Assembly: GCA_017554185.1 (NCBI GenBank)
Contig: JAFZIU010000077.1
Span: forward strand, 182-64,181
DNA from: Spirochaetia bacterium
GTDB lineage: Bacteria; Spirochaetota; Spirochaetia; CADAEX01
Direction of reading: 5' to 3'
Length of the DNA: 64,000 nucleotides
This document shows, one piece after another, positions 11,471 through 21,826 of the stretch; position 1 is the first letter of the stretch; every line of letters starts with the position of its first letter. The position numbers and the translations under genes were made by a program. The notes beneath the pieces were generated by a model. That model did no database searches, had not been told where the DNA came from, and saw nothing but the letters and a program-made list of their open reading frames with translations.

Positions 11471-11564
11471 TGGGAAAATTTCCTAAATTCCCGGGCATGG
11501 AAAACATTTTCCCGAAAGGTTTACAGAACCGCTTTTAGCCGTTATAGTAATAGAGGAGATTCGT

Positions 11565-11792
11565 ATGATGAACGACAGAATAAGCAAGCTGGGCCTTCTA
11601 TTTATTATTGTGGGTTTCTTCATGCTCTGTGTCAGCTATGCCATAGAAAATTTCGATATATTATACTCTGTTGATCCAGGCTATCTGTCAGCCCTGGGCG
11701 GCTTTACCCTCGTCACCGGCATGCTGGTGCTGGCCATCACCGGAACCTTCTATATCCTCAAGATGCTGGTCAGAAGATTTACAAAGAAATAA
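11565..11792 (+). CDS. small 2-TM membrane protein (75 aa)
   Basis: GAGGAG RBS. Two hydrophobic helices. Confidence 0.45.
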   Translation: MMNDRISKLGLLFIIVGFFMLCVSYAIENFDILYSVDPGYLSALGGFTLVTGMLVLAITGTFYILKMLVRRFTKK

Positions 11793-11911
11793 TTTTGTAA
11801 ATAAATAAATTTTTGTAAATAAAGTTAAAAAATAGTTGACAAAAAGTTATACATCAAGTTATATTTTATAATGTATTCATGTTTATATACTATTAGTATA
11901 TATATTAAGGA

Positions 11912-13309
11912 GTGAGAATGAAAAACAAGCTAATTTTTCTTTTGTGCGCAGTAATTGTACTGATGTTGTGTGCTTGTGATTCAGGAAGTGTTAAAAATAG
12001 CAGTTTAGACAGCGATACAGTCACAGTATCCCTTGCTGTTGCAGGGGAAAATATCTCTTCAAAAGCAATCTCAATCGGCAACCCTTGGGTTGGAAGCGAC
12101 ATAATATTTCAGTATAAGGCAATTCCAAGCTTTAAGCTTGCAAACGGGAAAGATCCTATAGGCTCAACTGGTGATGTCTGGACCGATTTCCCTTCCAGTT
12201 TTAATGGCTCCAGCTTTGAGCTGACTATCTCAAGAGGAGACTGGACTTTTGATGTCCGCGGCATCGATAAAAATGATGCTTCCATCATTTTATACAAGTT
12301 GCCAGCCAAGATGAGCTTTTCTTCCTCTTCCACATCAACAAACACCATTGTCTTCAATATTGAGAAAATGCCTGAGGGATTTGGCACTGCCTGCTTGAAT
12401 ATCCTTGTACAGACCGACATTGATGATGGAAGACTTATTGTCGAGTATAACGCTGTCGGCAGTGACGATTCTTATGAGTACACTTTTGACAGACCTACAG
12501 ATATCGATAAATATAAGGCCTTTTTTGCAGAAAACCTTGATCTTGCCAGCGGCACCTATATAATGACTTTCAACTATAAGGACAGTGAGTACAAGGCAGA
12601 TCTGGGCCCCTATATTGTTGAGATTGTGAACAAAAAGATTACCACTGTTGAGGGACGGATTGCAACGAATCGTCCATTCAGATTCGTAATGTCTGGAAGC
12701 ACCGAAGGCGTCCCCAGAATGAGCTTGAGTGAGTGTATCGTCTACTTTGATACAACAGTCGACCAGAATGTTGATTTAACTTTGTCAAAAGGAACTTTCT
12801 TCATACCAAGAGAGGGATCCTATACTCTCAATCCATCCCCATTCGCAGAAAGCCAGATAGAAATAGAGAAGCAGAGCATAAATAAGCAACAGCAGCTTGA
12901 AGTTAAGAAAGTTGAAGTTCAAAAAGCCGAAGCCCAGAAGGCTGAAGCTAAAAAAGCTGTAATAGAAAAGCAGCTTGAGCAGAAAATTGTAGTTCAGAAT
13001 GAACCTGCAAAAATAATTGAAAAACAGAAGATAAAAGAGTTGATCAAGGATGAAATAACAAAACCGCAGGATCGTGGCATTACTTTCAAATATGATTTTA
13101 TCTGTGATAGCGTTTTGGTTGACTCTGAACGGGTAAAATGGTGTTATAACTACGATACCAAGCGCTGGGAATTCTCCTTGCCGGCATCCTTGTTTAACAA
13201 TAACATTGCTGCCGCAAATCATACTCTTGTTATCAAAGCTTCTGTATTTATTGGCGAAGAACTTGTACTCGGCACAGAGAGTGAGCCTGTTGCAATTCAC
13301 TTAGAGTAA
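11912..13309 (+). CDS. lipoprotein with a central K/E/A/Q-rich coiled-coil repeat region (KKVEVQKAEAQKAEAKKAVIEKQLEQK)
   Basis: Lipobox (LMLCAC). Gene and its 120-nt upstream region are AT-rich (about 38% and 20% GC). Tandem 15-nt DNA repeats near 12890..12960. Confidence 0.6.
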   Translation: MRMKNKLIFLLCAVIVLMLCACDSGSVKNSSLDSDTVTVSLAVAGENISSKAISIGNPWVGSDIIFQYKAIPSFKLANGKDPIGSTGDVWTDFPSSFNGSSFELTISRGDWTFDVRGIDKNDASIILYKLPAKMSFSSSSTSTNTIVFNIEKMPEGFGTACLNILVQTDIDDGRLIVEYNAVGSDDSYEYTFDRPTDIDKYKAFFAENLDLASGTYIMTFNYKDSEYKADLGPYIVEIVNKKITTVEGRIATNRPFRFVMSGSTEGVPRMSLSECIVYFDTTVDQNVDLTLSKGTFFIPREGSYTLNPSPFAESQIEIEKQSINKQQQLEVKKVEVQKAEAQKAEAKKAVIEKQLEQKIVVQNEPAKIIEKQKIKELIKDEITKPQDRGITFKYDFICDSVLVDSERVKWCYNYDTKRWEFSLPASLFNNNIAAANHTLVIKASVFIGEELVLGTESEPVAIHLE

Positions 13310-13332
13310 GTTCTGGGTTAATTGATTTATAC

Positions 13333-13363
13333 ATCCCTGTGTTCTATGGCACAGGGATTTTTT
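13333..13363 (+). terminator. rho-independent terminator (tccctgtg-N8-cacaggga plus T6) immediately 5' of tRNA-Gly
   Basis: Seen in sequence. Closely resembles the terminator at 38184. Confidence 0.6.
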
Positions 13364-13434
13364 GCGGGCGTCGTATAGTGGTAATACCTAAGCTTCCCAA
13401 GCTTATGTCGGGGGTCCGATTCCCCTCGCCCGCT
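13364..13434 (+). tRNA. tRNA-Gly(CCC)
   Basis: Cloverleaf: acceptor GCGGGCG/CGCCCGC, D-arm GTATAGTGGTAATAC, anticodon arm TAAGC-TTCCCAA-GCTTA, T-loop TCCGATT. No encoded CCA. Confidence 0.85.
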
Positions 13435-13443
13435 TAATTTATT

Positions 13444-14289
13444 ATGACTGGACTGGTGATGGAAGGCGGAGCCATGCGGGGTATGTTCACCGCTGGTGTC
13501 TGCGATGTGCTTATGGAGCACGGCATAAAATTCGACGGTGCAATAGGTGTCTCGGCCGGCGCCACCTTTGGCTGCAACTACAAATCACATCAGATAGGCC
13601 GCGTGATACGGTACAACAAGCGTTTTGCCCGCAACTGGAGGTACTGCAGCCTCCGTTCCCTGTTCCTTACCGGCGACCTGTATGGCGCCGACTTCTGCTA
13701 CGACAAGATACCTAACCAGTTCGATCCTTTCGATTACGACACCTTTGCCAAAGACCCCATGCGCTTTTATGTGGTGGTCTCTGACTGCATGACCGGCGAG
13801 CCTATCTATAAAGAACTCAAAACTGGCCGAGGAACAGAGCTTACCTGGATGCGGGCCAGTGCCAGCATGCCATTAGTCTCCAGCGTGGTCAAAGTGGATG
13901 GCTACTGCCTTCTGGACGGAGGCATGACCGATTCCATCCCTCTAAAGAAGTTTCAGGAGATGGGATACGACAAGAACATTGTGATTTTGACACAGCCTAA
14001 AGATTTCATCAAAGAACCGGATTCCCTTCTGAAGCCTATGCGCCTTACACTGCATCGCTATCCCAAGCTGCTGGCAAAGATGGAGAACCGCCATGTCGAA
14101 TACAACCATCAGCATGATTATGCCTTCCAGCAGGAAAAAGAGGGGAAAGCCATAGTGATCTGCCCCGATAAGCCACTGGGAATATCACGCGTAGAGCATA
14201 ATCCAGACGAACTCCAGCGTTGCTATGACGCAGGCCGCCAGGTTGCAGAAACCCGTCTGGAAGAGATTAAAAAATTTCTGAATAACTAA
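13444..14289 (+). CDS. patatin-like phospholipase
   Basis: Gly-rich oxyanion hole (MEGGAMRG), nucleophile elbow GVSAG, Asp in DGG (LLDGGMTD). Confidence 0.8.
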   Translation: MTGLVMEGGAMRGMFTAGVCDVLMEHGIKFDGAIGVSAGATFGCNYKSHQIGRVIRYNKRFARNWRYCSLRSLFLTGDLYGADFCYDKIPNQFDPFDYDTFAKDPMRFYVVVSDCMTGEPIYKELKTGRGTELTWMRASASMPLVSSVVKVDGYCLLDGGMTDSIPLKKFQEMGYDKNIVILTQPKDFIKEPDSLLKPMRLTLHRYPKLLAKMENRHVEYNHQHDYAFQQEKEGKAIVICPDKPLGISRVEHNPDELQRCYDAGRQVAETRLEEIKKFLNN

Positions 14290-14768: not shown

Positions 14769-15410
14769 CTATCTCCTGCGGCCGAAAAGACGCTCTGCAG
14801 GATTAACCCTGAAGCGGATTACAAAATAAAGGTAGGCAAAGGCAAAGCCGCCCAGGTGGGTCAGATGGGCAACCCCGGCGTTGTAGCCAGTCATCTGATA
14901 TACAATCTCAAGCACAGTGTACCCGAGGATAAGCATCCGTGCCGACATGGGGACAATACCGAAAAGGAACACGGTGGAATCAGGGAATATCACAGCATAG
15001 GCCAGAAGCACTGCAAAGAGGGCACCGGAGGCACCCAGAAGGAAGATGCGATAATAACCGGTGTTCACATAGACAAAGTAAGAGAAGATGCCGGCAAGAG
15101 TTCCGCATACAAAGTAGAACAGGAGGAATTCCTTGCTGCCTATAGACTGTTCCACAGCCATGCCGAAAAAGTAGAGACCAAGCATGTTGAAGAAAAGGTG
15201 GCTCAGGCTTCCGTGAACAAACATGTAGGTTACAAACTGCCAGTACATGTGATGATGAGCCACGTTGATAGGGTTCATGGCCAGGTACGATGCAATCCGG
15301 CTGTTCATGGAGGTAAGCAGGAATATTGCCACATTGACTATGATTATGTAGAGGCACCAGTTCTTGTAAACATATCTGAATCTGGTTGAAAGAAGGTCAC
15401 GGATTTTCAT
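14769..15410 (-). CDS. rhomboid family intramembrane serine protease
   Basis: 6 TM. GASGALF catalytic Ser motif and downstream AHLTHLGG His. Confidence 0.8.
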   Translation of the reverse strand: MKIRDLLSTRFRYVYKNWCLYIIIVNVAIFLLTSMNSRIASYLAMNPINVAHHHMYWQFVTYMFVHGSLSHLFFNMLGLYFFGMAVEQSIGSKEFLLFYFVCGTLAGIFSYFVYVNTGYYRIFLLGASGALFAVLLAYAVIFPDSTVFLFGIVPMSARMLILGYTVLEIVYQMTGYNAGVAHLTHLGGFAFAYLYFVIRFRVNPAERLFGRRR

Positions 15411-16444: not shown

Positions 16445-17041
16445 GTGAAAAAAGGAACCTGGGACGACGATTTTTATACCAAGAAGGCACAGAAGGAGGG
16501 CTACCCTGCCCGTTCTGTCTATAAACTGCAGGAGATTCAGCAGAAGTTCAGCGTGATAAAGAAGGATTTCAAGGTGCTGGATGTGGGGGCTGCCCCGGGA
16601 AGCTGGACCATGTACATCATGAAGATGCTGGGTGAGTCCGGATTTCTTTCGGCCATTGACCTTAAGCCGCTGAGCATAACTGTAAAGAACCCCAATTTTT
16701 TCTTTGTCCAGGGCGATGCTTTTGACCCCGAGAACATAAGAGTGCTGGCAGAGAAAGGGCCTTACAATGCGGTAGTAAGCGATGCTGCCCCCTCCACCAC
16801 CGGCAACAAGATAGTGGATACCGAGCGCTCAATCCAGCTGATTGAATCGATTTACAGCACTGCACTGCAGGTGCTTACCCCCGGCGGCAACTTTGTGTTC
16901 AAGATGTTCCAAGGGGGCAAGGAGAAAGAGATCCTTGATGATATGAAGAAGCACTTTAATGCGGTGAAGATACTTAAGCCGCAGGCTTCCCGCAGCAATT
17001 CCTTCGAAACGTTTGTGATAGGGCTGGGTAAGAAAGCTTAA
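16445..17041 (+). CDS. rlmE: 23S rRNA (uridine2552-2'-O)-methyltransferase RlmE/FtsJ
   Basis: SAM motif VLDVGAAPGSW, K-D-K-E catalytic residues. GTG start. Confidence 0.85.
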   Translation: MKKGTWDDDFYTKKAQKEGYPARSVYKLQEIQQKFSVIKKDFKVLDVGAAPGSWTMYIMKMLGESGFLSAIDLKPLSITVKNPNFFFVQGDAFDPENIRVLAEKGPYNAVVSDAAPSTTGNKIVDTERSIQLIESIYSTALQVLTPGGNFVFKMFQGGKEKEILDDMKKHFNAVKILKPQASRSNSFETFVIGLGKKA

Positions 17042-17502
17042 AGCAGGCCTTTACCACCCTTCCCGCCCAGGATCTTGCCCCCCGCGGCAAGACCCAAGGC
17101 AATGGCGGCCACGCCCACCACTGCCTTCAGGACCGTGTTCACCTGGCTCGACTCTTTAGTGCCGTATTTGCACCAGTGGGTGAAGTGCTCGCAGTTGTTG
17201 AATGCAATGTTGTACTCGCCATGGAGCTTGCCCACCATGGATTTGGCCCTCTCCACCACACGGTCCGGCGGGAAGGCGCCCGGCTCATCCGTCTCCTCCA
17301 CATAGAGCCCGCTGCCTTCAAGAAAGTCTGCAAGAGAAGTCTCGATTATCTTAGCTCTTTCGGCATCCAGCTCTATACCTATGCCGGCCGAATAGTGGAT
17401 GACCCGGCCGTTCCCAATGTAAATGCCATAGTGTTTGTATAATCCCCGGTCTGCCACAATCACATCGCCGGCCAGCGGAACTTTTTCTGTAATACTCTTC
17501 AT
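17038..17502 (-). CDS. LRAT/PLAAT-like NlpC/P60-superfamily protein with C-terminal Gly-rich membrane anchor
   Basis: His (KHYGIYIG) plus NCEHF catalytic Cys signature of the LRAT/H-rev107 family. Tail KAVVGVAAIALGLAAGGKILGG. GGAGG RBS. Confidence 0.65.
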   Translation of the reverse strand: MKSITEKVPLAGDVIVADRGLYKHYGIYIGNGRVIHYSAGIGIELDAERAKIIETSLADFLEGSGLYVEETDEPGAFPPDRVVERAKSMVGKLHGEYNIAFNNCEHFTHWCKYGTKESSQVNTVLKAVVGVAAIALGLAAGGKILGGKGGKGLL

Positions 17503-17525
17503 AATCTAAATATACCTCCGATAAT

Positions 17526-18179
17526 CTAAATCGCCAACGGGTTCTCAAGCAAATCTTCCATGGAGCATCCCAGCACCTTGGAAAGCCGGAACAGCGCATT
17601 CACCTGGGCTTTGTCTATGTTGTTCTTCCGCTGTTCATACATCTGGATAGAACGCAGACTCACCTCTGACCGCTCAGCAAGTTGTGACTGTGAAAGGCCG
17701 TTTGCCTCCCTGATCCTCTTAAGATGTGTCTCTGCTCCCAGCTTTGAGCACACCTGATCAAGCCGTTCGATGAACCGGGTTATATCCATCTCATGGTATA
17801 CCGGATACATCTTAATAATTTCTGAAAGAGAAATATGTTCAAAGATGTCCCTGAAACTCCGGGCACTGTACCACTGATACTCTGCCAACGCCCACCCAGC
17901 CCAGTACTCCGGCGATTTTGACAAGGAAAACTTAACTTTTTGGGGCAACTTCTTTCCCGGATAGAAGCGGGAAATAATCTCAGATGCCAGCTCATAACCA
18001 GACATCCCGGCAACCACCCGGGGATTGCCGCATTCAAAAAGCCTTGCATACTCTGAGTTGATAAAAAACCTGGCAAAGAGATCTGCCTCTATCCCGACCA
18101 TGTTTATGGCATAGTCAAAGGCGGTAGCCAGATGCTTTTTTGCATCACTTAAATAGTATTCGCTGTATGCGTGCATCAT
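17526..18179 (-). CDS. protein with uncharacterised N-terminal domain and C-terminal XRE-family HTH (antitoxin-like)
   Basis: C-terminal HTH_3 (LKRIREANGLSQSQLAERSEVSLRSIQMYEQ). ATG at 18179 preceded by AAGGAG (the track TTG start at 18188 is less likely). Overlaps the upstream DUF3990-like gene by about 35 nt. Confidence 0.6.
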   Translation of the reverse strand: MMHAYSEYYLSDAKKHLATAFDYAINMVGIEADLFARFFINSEYARLFECGNPRVVAGMSGYELASEIISRFYPGKKLPQKVKFSLSKSPEYWAGWALAEYQWYSARSFRDIFEHISLSEIIKMYPVYHEMDITRFIERLDQVCSKLGAETHLKRIREANGLSQSQLAERSEVSLRSIQMYEQRKNNIDKAQVNALFRLSKVLGCSMEDLLENPLAI

Positions 18180-18834
18180 TGTTATCAATCTCCTTTCGGA
18201 TAATATCCATCACAAACAGGTCATTTTTATACCTTGAGACCTTTTTCATCTCAAGCTTATACGCCTTCCGGGCCTCATCATCCCGCTTTTTAAATAGAGG
18301 AAAATATTCAGACTTATCCACCGGTTTGGCCTCTATAAAGCTGATTGCTTCAAAAGCTTTTTTGGAAATAAGAACAGTCTGTGAGCCAAGATGACCGAAA
18401 TATAGTGCGTGAGTCAGGCTTCTGAGCGGCAATCCGTTCTCCACAAAACTTTCTGCAAAAGCAAAGTAGGAATCATCTGCACGATAACCGGTCAAGACAT
18501 CATAGACCGATGTGTCCTCGCAGAAATGACTGATTATATAATCCTTTGCATTGACCGCAATCTCGTTGGAAAGAGAGAATTTCCTGTTCTTGAGCAACAG
18601 GGCAATCCAGTTGAGCACAGTATGATTCCCGTCCAGCTGATTCAGATGCTCAAGCCCGTCCAAAGGAAACTCATACATGTTCACAAAGCCATCAGTGCCA
18701 TTCTTGCATGCCCATTCCTGTGCCAGCTCATAGTCAAAGGTACAGTAAAATCCCCGGCCATAATCATTGTTAGGTTTGCCAAGGGCAAGCTGGGGTTCTT
18801 TTATTATGTGGTCAGATCCATGATACAAAATCAT
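18145..18834 (-). CDS. DUF3990-like protein (MILYHGSDHIIK N-terminus)
   Basis: N-terminal LYHGS motif is how DUF3990 proteins start. Family assignment is from memory. ATG at 18834; the track TTG is at 18840. Confidence 0.5.
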   Translation of the reverse strand: MILYHGSDHIIKEPQLALGKPNNDYGRGFYCTFDYELAQEWACKNGTDGFVNMYEFPLDGLEHLNQLDGNHTVLNWIALLLKNRKFSLSNEIAVNAKDYIISHFCEDTSVYDVLTGYRADDSYFAFAESFVENGLPLRSLTHALYFGHLGSQTVLISKKAFEAISFIEAKPVDKSEYFPLFKKRDDEARKAYKLEMKKVSRYKNDLFVMDIIRKEIDNNDARIQRILFK

Positions 18835-18841
18835 GGTCAAA

Positions 18842-18863
18842 TTATATCATTACAATGATATAA
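18842..18863 (-). promoter_or_regulatory. perfect palindrome TTATATCATT-AC-AATGATATAA ending 8 nt upstream of the DUF3990-like start; candidate operator for the downstream HTH protein
   Basis: 10-bp perfect inverted arms with a 2-bp spacer. The minus-strand reading contains TATAAT. Confidence 0.45.
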
Positions 18864-18865
18864 AA

Positions 18866-19945
18866 TCAAGCATTAAGTTGACTTATCAAAAATGAGCGGC
18901 AGTAGTCCACCAGCTGTCGACGCCTGCCCCAGGCCCGGCGGAAATTGGCAGGATCAATCAGCCTTATATGCTTGGTGATATTGTTCTCCTGAAACTGCCA
19001 ACCATGGTATTCGGCCAGTTTAGACCAGAACACCTCGCCTCCGGCGGTGGGCAGATCGATGTTGAAATATCCCTGTATTTCCTTAAGATGCTCAGGATGC
19101 GCAGAGATCACCTCCAGAGTCCTCTGAAGGATTGCCTCGTCATCCATGGCATTTATCTTCTTAGCTCTGGCCCCGCTAAAGCTGAAATTAAAGTATCCCT
19201 TCAATGTCTTCAGGAGCGGGGCAAACCGCTTCCTGCAATCATCATACCCCAGCTTCATCCGCCGCTCGGCTCCCTTGGAAGAAAAGTCCAGCACGCCGAA
19301 CCAGTTATCCCCAAGATTGACAGTAGGATGAATCACGATTGTATTGATTCCCAAACCAGAATAGTCAACGTGGTAACTCCGCTTCAGGTTCACCACAATT
19401 GCATCGGTGCACCCCTCTTCCACAAGGGGTCCTATAGGGACCTCATCGCCCCAGCCGCCATCGATATAATGACTGCCAAAAATCTTCTCACCCTGGAACA
19501 CAATGGGAATTGCGCTGGTGGCACATAGAATCTGCTCCGCCATTTCTTTATCATAATTGTTCAAACAGAAACTCTCGGTCTTATGGGTGTCGGTATTTAG
19601 ACAGGTTGCATACAATTTTTTCTTGAGGGTAGGCAGCCTGCTGAAATCCAACTGCTCCATGATTCTATAAAGCCCTTCCCTGCTGAAGATAGCCCCAGAC
19701 CTCTTGGTGGGAGACTTGAAATCCAGGATATTGCTTTCAAGCTGGGTAGTCCATATATCTACAGCGGTATCGAAATCGCAGAGTGTCAACAAAATAGCAT
19801 TCAGCGCCCCTACCGAGGATCCTGAGATCACTGATATTTTCTTGGTCAGCCCTATCTCGGCCAGGTACTTCCAGACGCCCAGCTCATATGCGCCTTTTCC
19901 ACCGCCGCCTGCCAGAACCAGCCCTATTTTATGTTTGAAAAACAT
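18866..19945 (-). CDS. patatin-like phospholipase (359 aa, with C-terminal extension of about 130 aa)
   Basis: LVLAGGGGKGAY oxyanion loop, GSSVG nucleophile, IDGG Asp. ATG at 19945 preceded by GGAGG (the track start 19963 is less likely). Overlaps the 3' end of the Fic gene by 22 nt. Confidence 0.8.
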   Translation of the reverse strand: MFFKHKIGLVLAGGGGKGAYELGVWKYLAEIGLTKKISVISGSSVGALNAILLTLCDFDTAVDIWTTQLESNILDFKSPTKRSGAIFSREGLYRIMEQLDFSRLPTLKKKLYATCLNTDTHKTESFCLNNYDKEMAEQILCATSAIPIVFQGEKIFGSHYIDGGWGDEVPIGPLVEEGCTDAIVVNLKRSYHVDYSGLGINTIVIHPTVNLGDNWFGVLDFSSKGAERRMKLGYDDCRKRFAPLLKTLKGYFNFSFSGARAKKINAMDDEAILQRTLEVISAHPEHLKEIQGYFNIDLPTAGGEVFWSKLAEYHGWQFQENNITKHIRLIDPANFRRAWGRRRQLVDYCRSFLISQLNA

Positions 19946-20802
19946 GATTGTGCCTCCAGACAAGTCTCTCGTAGGAATCCCCGCTCATAGTTCCATTCCT
20001 TAAGTCCACGGTAGTAAAACCACTTGAGTTCTTCGGTGATGATAATCGGTTTAATATTGTACTTCAAGCACTCCTTGAACATGATAAGACGCCCCACCCG
20101 ACCGTTGCCATCCTGGAATGGATGAATACGCTCAAACTGAACATGGAAATCCAAGATATCATCCAAGGTCACGGTTTTCTTTGCATTATACTCGGCAAGG
20201 AGAGCCTTGATCCTGGGCTTAACACTCTCGGGACTGGCTGTATCCATACCCCCTACCTCGTTCTCTAAAAGCTTATAATCTCCAACTTTGAACCAAGTCT
20301 TCCTGGAATCGGAGGTACCGCTCTTGAGAATAAAATGAAGCTGTTTGATAAAGCTTTCGGTAAGTTTTGACTTAGCCCCCTCAATAGCCAGATCCACACA
20401 CCGAAAATGATTCACTGTCTCAACTATATCGTCCACATTGACGCTTTTATCTGTAATTCCTATGGTGTTAGTCTCGAAGATATAGCGGGTCTGCTCCGGG
20501 GTAAGCCGTGAGCCTTCTATATGGTTGGAGTTATAGGTAAGCTCTATCTGAACCCGATGGTACAGCCCACCTTTAAGCCCGGCTTCCTTTTCCCTCTTAA
20601 GCTGCTCAAGGATAGTCTCGTTCTTTTTCTTGGAGTGACGTATCTGCCGTTTTGGCTTAGAAGACCTAGATGGTACTTTCCAAGTCTTGCCCTCCAAAAT
20701 GGCACCTGGCACACGTCCGGCATTGCAGTAGTTCCGCACACTCCGCTCCGAGACCTGCCAGGCTTTGGCTATATCTGTCACTTGCCAATAATCTACGCTC
20801 AT
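19924..20802 (-). CDS. Fic/Doc family protein with N-terminal HTH and class-II-type inhibitory motif
   Basis: Fic motif HPFQDGNGRVGR. SNHIEG matches the (S/T)xxxE(G/N) inhibitory helix. N-terminal MerR/excisionase-like HTH (MSVDYWQVTDIAKAWQVSERSVRNY). ATG at 20802. Confidence 0.85.
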   Translation of the reverse strand: MSVDYWQVTDIAKAWQVSERSVRNYCNAGRVPGAILEGKTWKVPSRSSKPKRQIRHSKKKNETILEQLKREKEAGLKGGLYHRVQIELTYNSNHIEGSRLTPEQTRYIFETNTIGITDKSVNVDDIVETVNHFRCVDLAIEGAKSKLTESFIKQLHFILKSGTSDSRKTWFKVGDYKLLENEVGGMDTASPESVKPRIKALLAEYNAKKTVTLDDILDFHVQFERIHPFQDGNGRVGRLIMFKECLKYNIKPIIITEELKWFYYRGLKEWNYERGFLRETCLEAQSCFSNIK

Positions 20803-20820
20803 AGTAAGAATATAGCATAA

Positions 20821-20879
20821 TATCGGCAAAATATAAAGCACTTTTTTATTAAAATAACTCTATTTATATATTGCCGATA
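20821..20879 (-). promoter_or_regulatory. 15-bp imperfect inverted repeat (TATCGGCAAAATATA ... TATATATTGCCGATA, 14/15) in the AT-rich region upstream of the Fic gene
   Basis: Seen in sequence. About 29-nt spacer. Lies between the dapA terminator and the Fic start. Confidence 0.3.
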
Positions 20880-20893
20880 AAATCCGATAAGGA

Positions 20894-20928
20894 CAAAAAA
20901 ATCACCCCAGGAAAGCACCCGGGGTGAC
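20894..20928 (-). terminator. rho-independent terminator after dapA (tcaccccgggtgctttcctggggtga plus U8 on the minus strand)
   Basis: GC-rich 9-bp stem and a poly-U tail. Confidence 0.65.
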
Positions 20929-20950: not shown

Positions 20951-21826
20951 TTACAGTCCAAGCTTTGCCATTGCAGCGTCCATCTGAGCCTTTACAGCAG
21001 CAGAGGTCTCGCACAGAGGCAGGCGGTAAGCTTCCTGGATCATGCCGGCCTTGGCCATAGCATACTTGATAGGAACCGGGTTTGTGTCGGCAAACTCTGC
21101 TCTGAAGAACGGGAGCAGCTTGTAGTGGAGTGCCTTAGCCTCTTCCAGCTTGCCAGCCAGTGCTGCGTTGCACAGTGCATTCATCTCTCTTGGGATAAGG
21201 TTGGATGCTACAGATACAATTCCCTTTCCGCCCATTGCAATAAGGAGGAAGCCCAGGTTGTCGTCGCCGGAGAGCACTGTGAATGTGTCTGGCTTTGCAG
21301 CGATAAGGTTCATCATCTGGTTTACGTCGCCGCTTGCTTCCTTTACAGCCTGGATATTTGGATGCTGAGCCAGTCTGAGCATAGTTGCGTTGTCGATGTT
21401 CTTTCCTGTTCTTCCAGGGATGTTGTATACAACCATCGGAATGTCAACTGCATCTGCGATTGTCATGAAGTGGCGGTAGAAGCCCTCCATGCTAGGCTTG
21501 TTGTAGTAAGGTGCAACCTGCAGTGTGGCATCTACGCCGTAGCTTGCTGCAATCTTGGTCATGTGGAGTGCCTCGGCTGTGCTGTTGGAGCCTGCGCCTG
21601 CGATAATCTGGCAGCGGCCTGCAACCTGACGTGCTACAAACTCGATGATCTTAAGGTGATCCTCGTGGATGATTGTAGGGCTTTCGCCTGTGGTGCCCAT
21701 AGGTGCGATTCCGGCAACTCCGGATTCCACCTGGAAGTCAACCAGTGCCTTGAGAGCGCCCCAGTCAATTGATTCGTCCTTATTGAATGGTGTGATAAGG
21801 GCGGTGTATATTCCTTCAAACTTCAT
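20951..21826 (-). CDS. dapA: 4-hydroxy-tetrahydrodipicolinate synthase
   Basis: DapA N-terminus GIYTALITPF and TIM-barrel motifs (GTTGE). Confidence 0.9.
   Translation of the reverse strand: MKFEGIYTALITPFNKDESIDWGALKALVDFQVESGVAGIAPMGTTGESPTIIHEDHLKIIEFVARQVAGRCQIIAGAGSNSTAEALHMTKIAASYGVDATLQVAPYYNKPSMEGFYRHFMTIADAVDIPMVVYNIPGRTGKNIDNATMLRLAQHPNIQAVKEASGDVNQMMNLIAAKPDTFTVLSGDDNLGFLLIAMGGKGIVSVASNLIPREMNALCNAALAGKLEEAKALHYKLLPFFRAEFADTNPVPIKYAMAKAGMIQEAYRLPLCETSAAVKAQMDAAMAKLGL

Follow-up and report, generated by a model that had tools for sequence, protein, structure and literature searches.

Do five genes packed tightly between two core genes constitute a single molecular system, or have they gathered at the same site independently? 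The question is raised by a 64,000-nt stretch of contig JAFZIU010000077.1 (assembly GCA_017554185.1, Spirochaetia bacterium), referred to here in its full length as the window. Between rlmE and dapA it carries genes for a Fic protein with an N-terminal helix-turn-helix (HTH) domain, a patatin-like phospholipase, a DUF3990 protein, a partner of the latter consisting of an N-terminal domain (N-domain) and a C-terminal XRE-type HTH, and an LRAT/PLAAT-like enzyme. A preliminary description treated these as one five-gene accessory islet. The comparative analysis presented here makes it very likely that the dapA–rlmE gap is instead a hotspot of recombination and accretion in a lineage of uncultured rumen Spirochaetia, not a five-gene machine. 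The genes and their flanks, in window coordinates, are:

16445–17041, plus strand: rlmE, FtsJ-type rRNA methyltransferase (Pfam FtsJ, 4e-47), conserved flank, convergent on the LRAT gene
17038–17502, minus strand: LRAT/PLAAT-like gene, 154 aa (PF04970, 1.4e-28, 100 bits)
17509–17537, minus strand: promoter-like site of the LRAT gene, TTGGCG-17-TATATT (promoter scan), the −10 ending 6 nt before the ATG
17526–18179, minus strand: partner gene, N-domain plus HTH_3, 217 aa by the gene callers (HTH_3 2.9e-10, C-terminal); the maximal open reading frame (ORF) extends to 18188
18145–18834, minus strand: DUF3990 gene, 229 aa (PF13151, 5.5e-41, 140.2 bits against a gathering score of 32.2)
18866–19945, minus strand: patatin gene, 359 aa (PF01734, 8e-26, 91.9 bits against a cut-off of 27.7)
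19924–20802, minus strand: HTH-Fic gene, 292 aa (PF02661, 3e-16, 60.5 bits against a cut-off of 24; weak N-terminal HTH_17)
20901–20928, minus strand: intrinsic terminator of dapA, an 11-pair hairpin followed by a T-run
20951–21826, minus strand: dapA, conserved flank (Pfam DHDPS, 2e-88), 96–99% identical in close relatives

The loci compared came from dapA relatives, namely "Spirochaetia bacterium" genome bins of uncultured organisms in the rumen and gut of yak, sheep, goat, horse, and other hosts, and from contigs encoding islet proteins or their homologues; synteny was assessed by tblastn of the window proteins on these loci, which carry the handles L001 and upward. rlmE is syntenic in all relatives compared, and in related rumen Spirochaetia contigs the gap between dapA and LRAT–rlmE takes at least seven arrangements:

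State A: dapA-LRAT-rlmE (L006–L008, with dapA about 85% identical)
State B: dapA-patatin-LRAT-rlmE (L002, L003, L151)
State C: dapA-patatin-DUF3990-HTH-LRAT-rlmE (L028–L030, L148)
State D: the arrangement of the window, that is, state C plus Fic (window, L022–L024, L139–L144)
State E: an HTH gene, a second LRAT-like gene, and a DUF1232 gene before Fic-patatin-DUF3990 (L009, L150)
State F: M42 peptidase, radical SAM, SNF2 helicase, HTH, and small ORF before patatin-LRAT (L005, L001), with a second patatin and a PDDEXK_2 transposase-like gene as extras in L001
State G: an unknown gene, Fic (84%), three unknown genes, NYN, DUF1232, and more (L004)

Conserved flanks with alternative cargo in relatives are the signature of a core-flanked variable hotspot, and the gap displays both. 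Because LRAT stands alone in some relatives and others carry partial combinations of the genes, the five genes are not one system; across genomes they neither co-occur nor are co-inherited as a set, and the single unit of the preliminary description does not survive the comparison. Its suggestion that scattered occurrence would speak against such a unit has been borne out, in that homologues of Fic and of the DUF3990 pair are found elsewhere in unrelated contexts without the other genes. Gene content, cassette boundaries, and the independence of the modules are direct observations, as are the conservation and covariation of the operators described below. All contigs with an identical LRAT protein are in state D, and the five-gene state is thus fixed within one strain cluster; the term "fixed islet" is apt for that cluster and misleading for the locus, which is highly variable among related genomes. 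The preliminary description had proposed to look for relatives with rlmE directly adjacent to dapA; in state A, LRAT still stands between the two.

As a physical description of the window, the preliminary account was accurate. ORFs and Pfam domains confirm five packed minus-strand genes between rlmE and dapA with all five domain calls correct, the overlaps are exactly 22 nt for Fic and patatin (19924–19945) and 35 nt for DUF3990 and partner (18145–18179), the catalytic motifs of patatin and LRAT are found in the translations, and the dapA terminator and the convergent rlmE, whose stop codon overlaps that of LRAT at 17038–17041, are both present. The terminator is common to L001, L005, and L009 and differs in L002 and L028. 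As had been noted, an integrase is lacking, with none among the called genes for about 8 kb to each side of the islet; no tRNA adjoins the islet, the nearest lying 3.6 kb off at 13364–13434, and no direct repeats were found flanking it. The locus thus lacks the features of an integrase-mediated genomic island (an integrase or recombinase, a tRNA or att site, and flanking repeats). The claim that the islet is poorer in G+C (GC) than its flanks is only weakly true: the values are 0.426 for the DUF3990 gene, 0.460 for Fic, 0.477 for the partner, 0.491 for patatin, and 0.557 for LRAT, which is GC-richer. With the whole window at 0.484 and the 57 non-islet genes averaging 0.488 ± 0.035, DUF3990 is the sole islet gene about 1.8 standard deviations under the mean, and the overall deviation is marginal. 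A codon-adaptation-like index gives 0.695–0.740 for the five genes vs. 0.771 ± 0.041 for the rest. We set composition aside as a sign of foreign origin, the deviation being too weak.

The ancestral layer at this site would be the LRAT/PLAAT-like gene, a vertically inherited neighbour of rlmE with its own promoter. It adjoins rlmE in L006–L008, where all other islet genes are absent, and in tblastn comparison of relatives its identity is 60–70% where the polyprenyl synthase is at 65% and the rhomboid at 65–70%. Its divergence thus keeps pace with that of the genes around it, which marks LRAT as a core gene passed on vertically, not the accessory gene it had been taken for, and only the LRAT–dapA stretch is variable. 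Its promoter-like site lies in a stretch that, from window 17538, is continuous with the cassette-free L002 and L003. The protein has the His-His-Cys arrangement with NCEHF and the C-terminal anchor that characterize the LRAT/PLAAT group of the NlpC/P60 superfamily: the triad H24, H36, C104 aligns with human PLAAT3/HRASLS structures (8e-12), and the hydrophobic C terminus reaches a Kyte–Doolittle 19-residue mean of 2.0. The triad is conserved, and the hydrophobic tail is kept in eight orthologues or paralogues and in all gap states. We predict a membrane-anchored Cys-His-His acyltransferase/phospholipase. It shares the H-x11-H...NCEHF arrangement and the C-terminal membrane anchor with the mammalian PLAAT/HRASLS and LRAT enzymes and differs from them in being bacterial and a core gene of its locus rather than mobile cargo.

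The patatin gene would form a second, older layer, and on sequence comparison it is a long-resident, lineage-specific gene of this locus, to which the label "accessory" applies more loosely than it does to Fic and the DUF3990 pair, where it is supported. It is found here in states B to F at 69–98% identity, and full-length homologues form a continuum from 98% down to about 41%. The translation contains GGGGKG, GSSVG, and IDGG, and hence the Ser-Asp dyad and the Gly-rich oxyanion loop of the family; its C-terminal extension of about 120 aa has no Pfam match at E ≤ 10. Distant homologues stand alone, one of them a paralogue in the genome bin of L005, beside WYL and HigBA genes, and a second adjoining Cys/Met metabolism genes in a different phylum-level context. 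The protein is not a CapV-type effector lipase of the cyclic-oligonucleotide-based antiphage signalling system CBASS (24.7 bits vs. an equivalog cut-off of 200), and the locus contains no gene for a CD-NTase/cyclase. The L009 patatin (L009:3620–4729) is a mosaic relative to that of the window, 100% identical over its first 40 residues, 53–82% in the middle, and 95% near the C terminus. Because its neighbours Fic and DUF3990 are 94–95% identical to those of the window, this pattern points to recombination within the gene, and it suggests intragenic recombination or a diversifying exchange. In relatives that lack Fic, patatin has a −10-like element of its own, TAAAAT or TAAACT, directly after the dapA terminator.

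On one side of the patatin gene lies the DUF3990 cassette, which would have been acquired independently as a third layer. Its features are:

17539–18878: DUF3990 cassette, 1,340 bp, comprising promoter/operator and two overlapping genes, an insertion relative to state B
18841–18869, minus strand: DUF3990 promoter, TTGATT-17-TATAAT with extended TG (promoter scan, 10/12 matches)
18842–18863: perfect 22-nt palindrome TTATATCATTGTAATGATATAA, filling the promoter spacer and overlapping the −10 hexamer

In L002 and L003, blastn joins window position 18879 directly to 17538, so that the cassette sits between the last patatin codons and the LRAT promoter, starting about 9 nt upstream of its −35 hexamer and ending with the last codons of the HTH gene. 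Its right junction has 7 bp of microhomology (GTTGGCG) to the former patatin tail, and these letters are also the −35 region of the LRAT promoter. The idea that the last codons of the partner derive from the displaced patatin tail was dropped, as its ENP[LM]x C terminus is the family consensus.

The −10 of the cassette promoter ends 6 nt before the ATG, and the palindrome overlapping it probably serves the XRE partner as operator. In 19 homologous loci the promoter has a palindrome at this position, and its sequence shifts as the proteins diverge: it is TATCATTGnAATGATA in loci at 58–100% protein identity, TATCACTnnGGTGATA in loci at 41–44%, and TACTTCCnTAGAAGTA in a locus at 48%. This covariation of palindrome and proteins is good comparative evidence of XRE autoregulation, as in type II toxin–antitoxin modules, and autoregulation of the cassettes is reasonably well supported. 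Many homologous cassettes (L123–L136, L032, L034) have two operator palindromes, the first located in the promoter spacer and the second in the leader; the spirochaete version keeps only the first.

The two proteins have the layout of a type II toxin–antitoxin pair, with small, adjacent, co-oriented genes, an HTH protein, and an operator within the promoter, and the toxin-antitoxin-like character attributed to them earlier is upheld. We infer that the DUF3990 protein is the toxin and the partner both antitoxin and autorepressor; the toxicity of the candidate toxins in the locus is plausible. In a structure model, the DUF3990 protein has an ADP-ribosyltransferase fold whose nearest relatives are the RES toxins, a fold-level similarity only, at 8–12% identity. 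DUF3990 belongs to the ADP-ribosyltransferase clan of Pfam (PMC7955679) and has also been seen as a C-terminal toxin domain of Rhs proteins (PMC4524185). Its invariant residues include H5-G6, Y25-G26-x-G28-F29-Y30, and D112, of which H5-G6 and Y25-G-x-G-F-Y30 agree with motifs one and two of the H-Y-E-type enzymes. The partner is modelled with a predicted local distance difference test score (pLDDT) of 87 as an all-helical N-domain (residues ~1–145) followed by the XRE HTH. Its N-domain matches no Pfam family at E ≤ 10, including DUF3791, the usual neighbour of DUF3990, and no solved structure, the PDB matches being to the HTH only. The N-domain family comprises 1,280 representative clusters and occurs as stand-alone proteins of ~145 aa, in HTH fusions of ~215 aa, and once fused to DUF3990. 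The latter, a 393-aa protein from the representative library (P0477), joins the N-domain (residues 2–137) to DUF3990 (residues 158–322) without an HTH and supports a direct functional link between DUF3990 and partner. Proteins of 357–368 aa also exist in which N-domain and HTH are followed by an extra C-terminal region of ~150 aa. Under the mechanism we propose, DUF3990 would act as an NAD+-using ADP-ribosyltransferase-fold toxin, the helical N-domain would neutralise it, the XRE HTH would repress the cassette promoter at the palindrome, and the pair would serve as a type II toxin–antitoxin or abortive-infection module with toxin-first gene order.

The pair recurs far beyond this locus. DUF3990 proteins form 4,591 and partners 3,709 clusters (90% identity, E ≤ 1e-5), and the identities of the two proteins fall in parallel steps, from ~85–90% within the lineage to ~60–66% in other gut organisms. 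The only named homologues at ~60% identity are "Eubacteriales" and "Ruminococcus" (names of cluster members), and a Clostridia origin of the pair is suggested. Elsewhere the overlapping pair adjoins AbiEii, peptidase U49 (Lit-type), Wadjet JetC/D, AAA_14/DUF4143, and relaxase fragments, and Fic, patatin, and LRAT are absent from the DUF3990-pair loci examined there. The partner lies immediately downstream of DUF3990 in 14 of 16 viral contigs from IMG/VR, down to 41% identity, and the 35-nt overlap is conserved over the same range; in a fifteenth contig, L136, it lies ~3 kb downstream of a split DUF3990 gene. In this contig (L136:3457–7532) the homologue aligns to residues 3–157 only, and an insertion may have split the toxin gene. 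A search of plasmid DNA with the cassette returned one weak match, in Subdoligranulum.

Among characterized systems, the pair most resembles the RES-Xre type II toxin–antitoxin modules (ParST, MbcTA, Res-Xre), which likewise couple a small ADP-ribosyltransferase-fold toxin to an XRE-HTH protein with a neutralising domain and have an autoregulatory operator in the promoter, as predicted for the DUF3990 cassette. However, the DUF3990 protein has no RES Pfam match and lacks the R-E-S motif of that domain, its residues appearing instead to be of the H-Y-[D/E] type (HG[ST], YGxGFY); the cassette is toxin-first; and the N-domain is without Pfam or PDB match. In the window partner, moreover, the HTH is C-terminal and the candidate neutralising domain N-terminal, the opposite of the RES-Xre layout. 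MbcT is an NAD+ phosphorylase (PMC6436930). Of the PADLOC candidates, PDC-M42 comes closest to the pair: DUF3990 matches PDC-M42A (2.5e-37 over nearly the full model), and the N-domain of the partner, encoded by the adjacent, overlapping gene, matches PDC-M42B weakly. The window partner adds a C-terminal XRE HTH that is absent from the 138-position PDC-M42B model; PDC-M13 and PDC-M10 are also DUF3990-based. In the literature on DUF3990, DUF3791, and PDC-M42/M13/M10, we found no experimental work, and these candidates are computational predictions.

On the other side of patatin, the fourth layer would be an independently acquired cassette encoding a solitary, auto-inhibited Fic AMPylase:

19946–20894: Fic cassette, ~0.95 kb, comprising split operator, promoter, and gene, replacing the native dapA–patatin intergenic region
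19953–19957, minus strand: GGAGG Shine–Dalgarno sequence of patatin, inside the Fic 3′ end, 7 nt upstream of the patatin ATG
20837–20809, minus strand: Fic promoter, TTTATA-17-TATATT with TG (promoter scan)
20811–20837 and 20863–20889: arms of the inverted repeat upstream of Fic, core ATCGGCAA...TTGCCGAT
20876–20871 and 20829–20824: operator half-sites CGGCAA and TTGCCG, the second inside the promoter spacer

Homology of this cassette to L004 and L009 spans window 20879–19951, and 20945–19946 is missing from L028 and L002. The GGAGG of patatin was created by the cassette junction, as comparison with Fic-free relatives reveals. Since the Fic 3′ end supplies this site, and patatin has its own −10-like element where Fic is absent, the Fic/patatin overlap is a secondary product of the insertion. 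The insertion replaced the patatin promoter; as a side effect of the junction, patatin is now transcribed from the Fic promoter, and its translation is coupled to that of Fic.

The Fic protein contains the active-site motif HPFQDGNGRVGR and, in the same chain, the inhibitory-helix motif SNHIEG (residues ~92–97), and hence both signatures of class II Fic proteins, HxFx(D/E)GNGRxxR and an (S/T)xxxE(G/N) motif N-terminal to the core. In alignment with the solved Fic family protein 4x2e (4e-31), SNHIEG coincides with SNKIEG, and the active-site motifs are aligned. We therefore predict a solitary AMPylase of the class II, auto-inhibited type. PADLOC assigns it to PDC-S04 (PDLC04836; 4.5e-104, model positions 3–232 of 244); an identity as SoFic was rejected (28.7 bits vs. 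an NCBIfam cut-off of 550; PADLOC SoFic 2.1e-19, far below PDC-S04). With PDC-S04 and class II Fic proteins (4x2e/4x2c) it shares a full-length hidden Markov model match, the SxxxEG and HPFxDGNGRxGR motifs, and its solitary state, and it differs in its N-terminal HTH and split operator, which lie outside the 244-position model and the 235-aa solved protein. Rumen genome bins often carry PDC-S04, with 1,628 calls (PMC13356809).

The AT-rich region and the 15-bp inverted repeat upstream of Fic are present as described earlier; they are the conserved promoter/operator of the Fic cassette alone rather than a control region for the islet, the repeat being conserved in L004 and L009. Among metagenome loci, we compared the best 80 of more than 580 relatives, 64–72% identical and mostly from the human gut. 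CGGCAA...TTGCCG with a spacer of 35–39 nt occurs upstream of Fic in 55 of 75 such loci, vs. 13 of 2,456 control windows (0.5%); the spacer in the window is 41 nt. The N-terminal HTH of Fic probably binds this putative split operator across its own promoter and would thereby autoregulate. Within 6 kb, homologues of patatin, LRAT, DUF3990, and the partner occur in 0 of these 80 best loci, and the genes downstream of Fic fall into 19 unrelated clusters with no conserved partner.

The islet thus has three separate promoter regions, for Fic, the DUF3990 cassette, and LRAT. At each promoter-like site (17502–17537, 18834–18869, and 20802–20837) the −10 ends 6 nt before the ATG, a geometry also seen at 8 of the 62 gene starts in the window. 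It is suggested that the mRNAs from these promoters are leaderless; most gut homologues of both cassettes have 40- to 100-nt leaders with GGAGG instead.

The cargo of the other states includes further defence-like genes. PADLOC matches in the hotspot cargo comprise PDC-S04, PDC-M42-like proteins, a DpdE/ZorD-type SNF2 helicase, and a pVip-like radical SAM protein; there is no complete validated defence system in it, and many cargo genes have no match. In L005 (12275–16130), the 445-aa radical SAM protein (pVip-like, 3.5e-22) adjoins an 816-aa SNF2 helicase (DpdE/ZorD-like, 3e-119) and the M42 peptidase, a combination that is not a recognised complete system. L001:17713–20873 contains patatin paralogues 60% and 85% identical to that of the window, with the PDDEXK_2 transposase-like (Rpn-type) gene on the opposite strand between them, a gene that could drive rearrangement at the locus. 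In L009 (958–2642) and L150 (4321–6005), a divergent XRE HTH gene, a second LRAT-like gene (57% identity), and a gene for a DUF1232 membrane protein precede Fic, and DUF1232 recurs in the unrelated cargo of L004 (18266–18667). L009 is contig JAFZYX010000155.1, deposited in a "Ruminococcus sp." bin; its dapA is 99% identical to that of the spirochaete window, and the contig is probably mis-binned.

Several points weigh against the hotspot reading or parts of it. All of its support is comparative. The cassette junctions have no target-site duplication, terminal inverted repeats, or attC-like site that would speak for a mechanism of insertion, and at least 10 independent rumen assemblies have state D unchanged; together with the coupling of patatin to Fic, this stability makes secondary functional cooperation possible. 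As to the modules themselves, deletion of PDC-S04 in one native host gave no defence phenotype (bioRxiv 10.1101/2024.12.20.629700), the match of partner residues 5–141 to PDC-M42B (positions 1–133 of 138) is weak (8.8e-7, 27 bits), and the third catalytic residue of DUF3990 is a guess, D112 (or Q152) being a candidate only.

Of the alternatives, one which we regard as unlikely, if worth keeping in view, is that patatin and LRAT carry out housekeeping remodelling of membrane lipids at a site that tolerates selfish insertions of toxin–antitoxin type, with no defence role. It is consistent with the core status of LRAT, with the long residence of patatin and a divergence like that of neighbouring genes, with a second, conserved patatin 3 kb from the islet (13444–14289), and with the unvalidated state of the PDC candidates. 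Yet the blockwise divergence of the L009 patatin (53–100%), the duplication of patatin in L001, the paralogue beside WYL and HigBA genes, the DpdE/ZorD-type helicase (3e-119) among the alternative cargo, and the presence of DUF3990 pairs in defence islands elsewhere all count against it. Improbable, in our estimate, is a functional Fic–patatin pair in which the lipase is controlled by Fic, through its operator or by AMPylation. The 22-nt overlap, the GGAGG inside the Fic 3′ end, the same junction in L009 and L150, and the loss of the patatin promoter on insertion speak for such a pair; however, states B, C, and F have patatin but no Fic, the 84% identical Fic of L004 precedes an unrelated 537-aa gene, none of the 80 best Fic loci has a patatin, and homology of the Fic cassette stops exactly at the junction.

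We give little credence to the proposal that the stacked genes form an emergent composite abortive-infection unit, in which a leaderless promoter controlled by HTH-Fic drives patatin, alongside the DUF3990 pair and the PLAAT-like enzyme. If it were true, AMPylation or ADP-ribosylation signals would release membrane-destroying lipases, and a new multi-effector system would have been caught in mid-assembly. Very improbable is the view that the islet is what decay has left of one integrative element or prophage, acquired all at once: DUF3990 pairs do occur on predicted viral contigs, and GC and codon adaptation are slightly low, but integrase (within ~8 kb each side), adjacent tRNA, and flanking direct repeats are lacking, and the two cassettes have independent boundaries, occur separately, and lie on opposite sides of the resident patatin. 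Scarcely credible is a single defence or toxin system in which the two lipases would be effectors at the membrane, with sensing or regulation left to Fic and the toxin-antitoxin-like pair. The shared strand, tight packing, 22- and 35-nt overlaps, and identical arrangement in at least 10 rumen assemblies speak for it. Yet close relatives carry every partial combination and more distant ones LRAT alone, the islet has three promoter regions that are separate from one another, Fic and the DUF3990 pair turn up in hundreds to thousands of other places where the remaining genes are missing, and the contigs of identical arrangement share an identical LRAT protein and hence represent one strain cluster.

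Elsewhere in the window, at a distance of ~4 kb from the islet, there is another variable spot, a low-GC stretch (11500–13434; GC 0.34–0.41). A 463-aa ORF there (11918–13309, plus strand), with no Pfam match, adjoins tRNA-Gly (13364–13434) and in sister contigs is absent (L143) or replaced by a ParE/PhdYeFM toxin–antitoxin pair (L145). The rhomboid gene (14769–15410), between the genes for polyprenyl synthase and a PNPOx-like protein, is truncated or missing in near-identical contigs (L145–L147).

Core-gene-flanked hotspots of defence and accessory genes have been described for the pan-genomes of Escherichia coli and Pseudomonas. The dapA–rlmE gap resembles these in its conserved core flanks, its alternative cargo with toxin-antitoxin and defence-like genes, and occupants that often lack an integrase, and differs from them in its host, an uncultured rumen spirochaete, and in its very small scale, with single cassettes of 0.95 and 1.34 kb fitted without a seam to the ends of genes. 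The locus is thus a worked example of cassette accretion, in which promoter-plus-gene cassettes have been added, with no recombinase found, and both ancestral and intermediate states can be observed. As the five-gene system does not stand, there is no case for pursuing it as a new defence system, and both cassettes were already listed by PADLOC as unvalidated candidates: a check against that collection, as had been recommended, returned PDC-S04 for Fic and PDC-M42A for DUF3990. What can best be reused is the description of the DUF3990 pair, along with the two operators found to be conserved. The conserved split operator offers a regulatory handle on PDC-S04, for which autoregulation is suggested. 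For the family of DUF3990 proteins with N-domain/XRE partners, which comprises thousands of clusters from gut bacteria and (pro)phages, fold, operator, covariation, and fusion provide a sharper description, one that makes a test of toxin–antitoxin or abortive-infection function straightforward.

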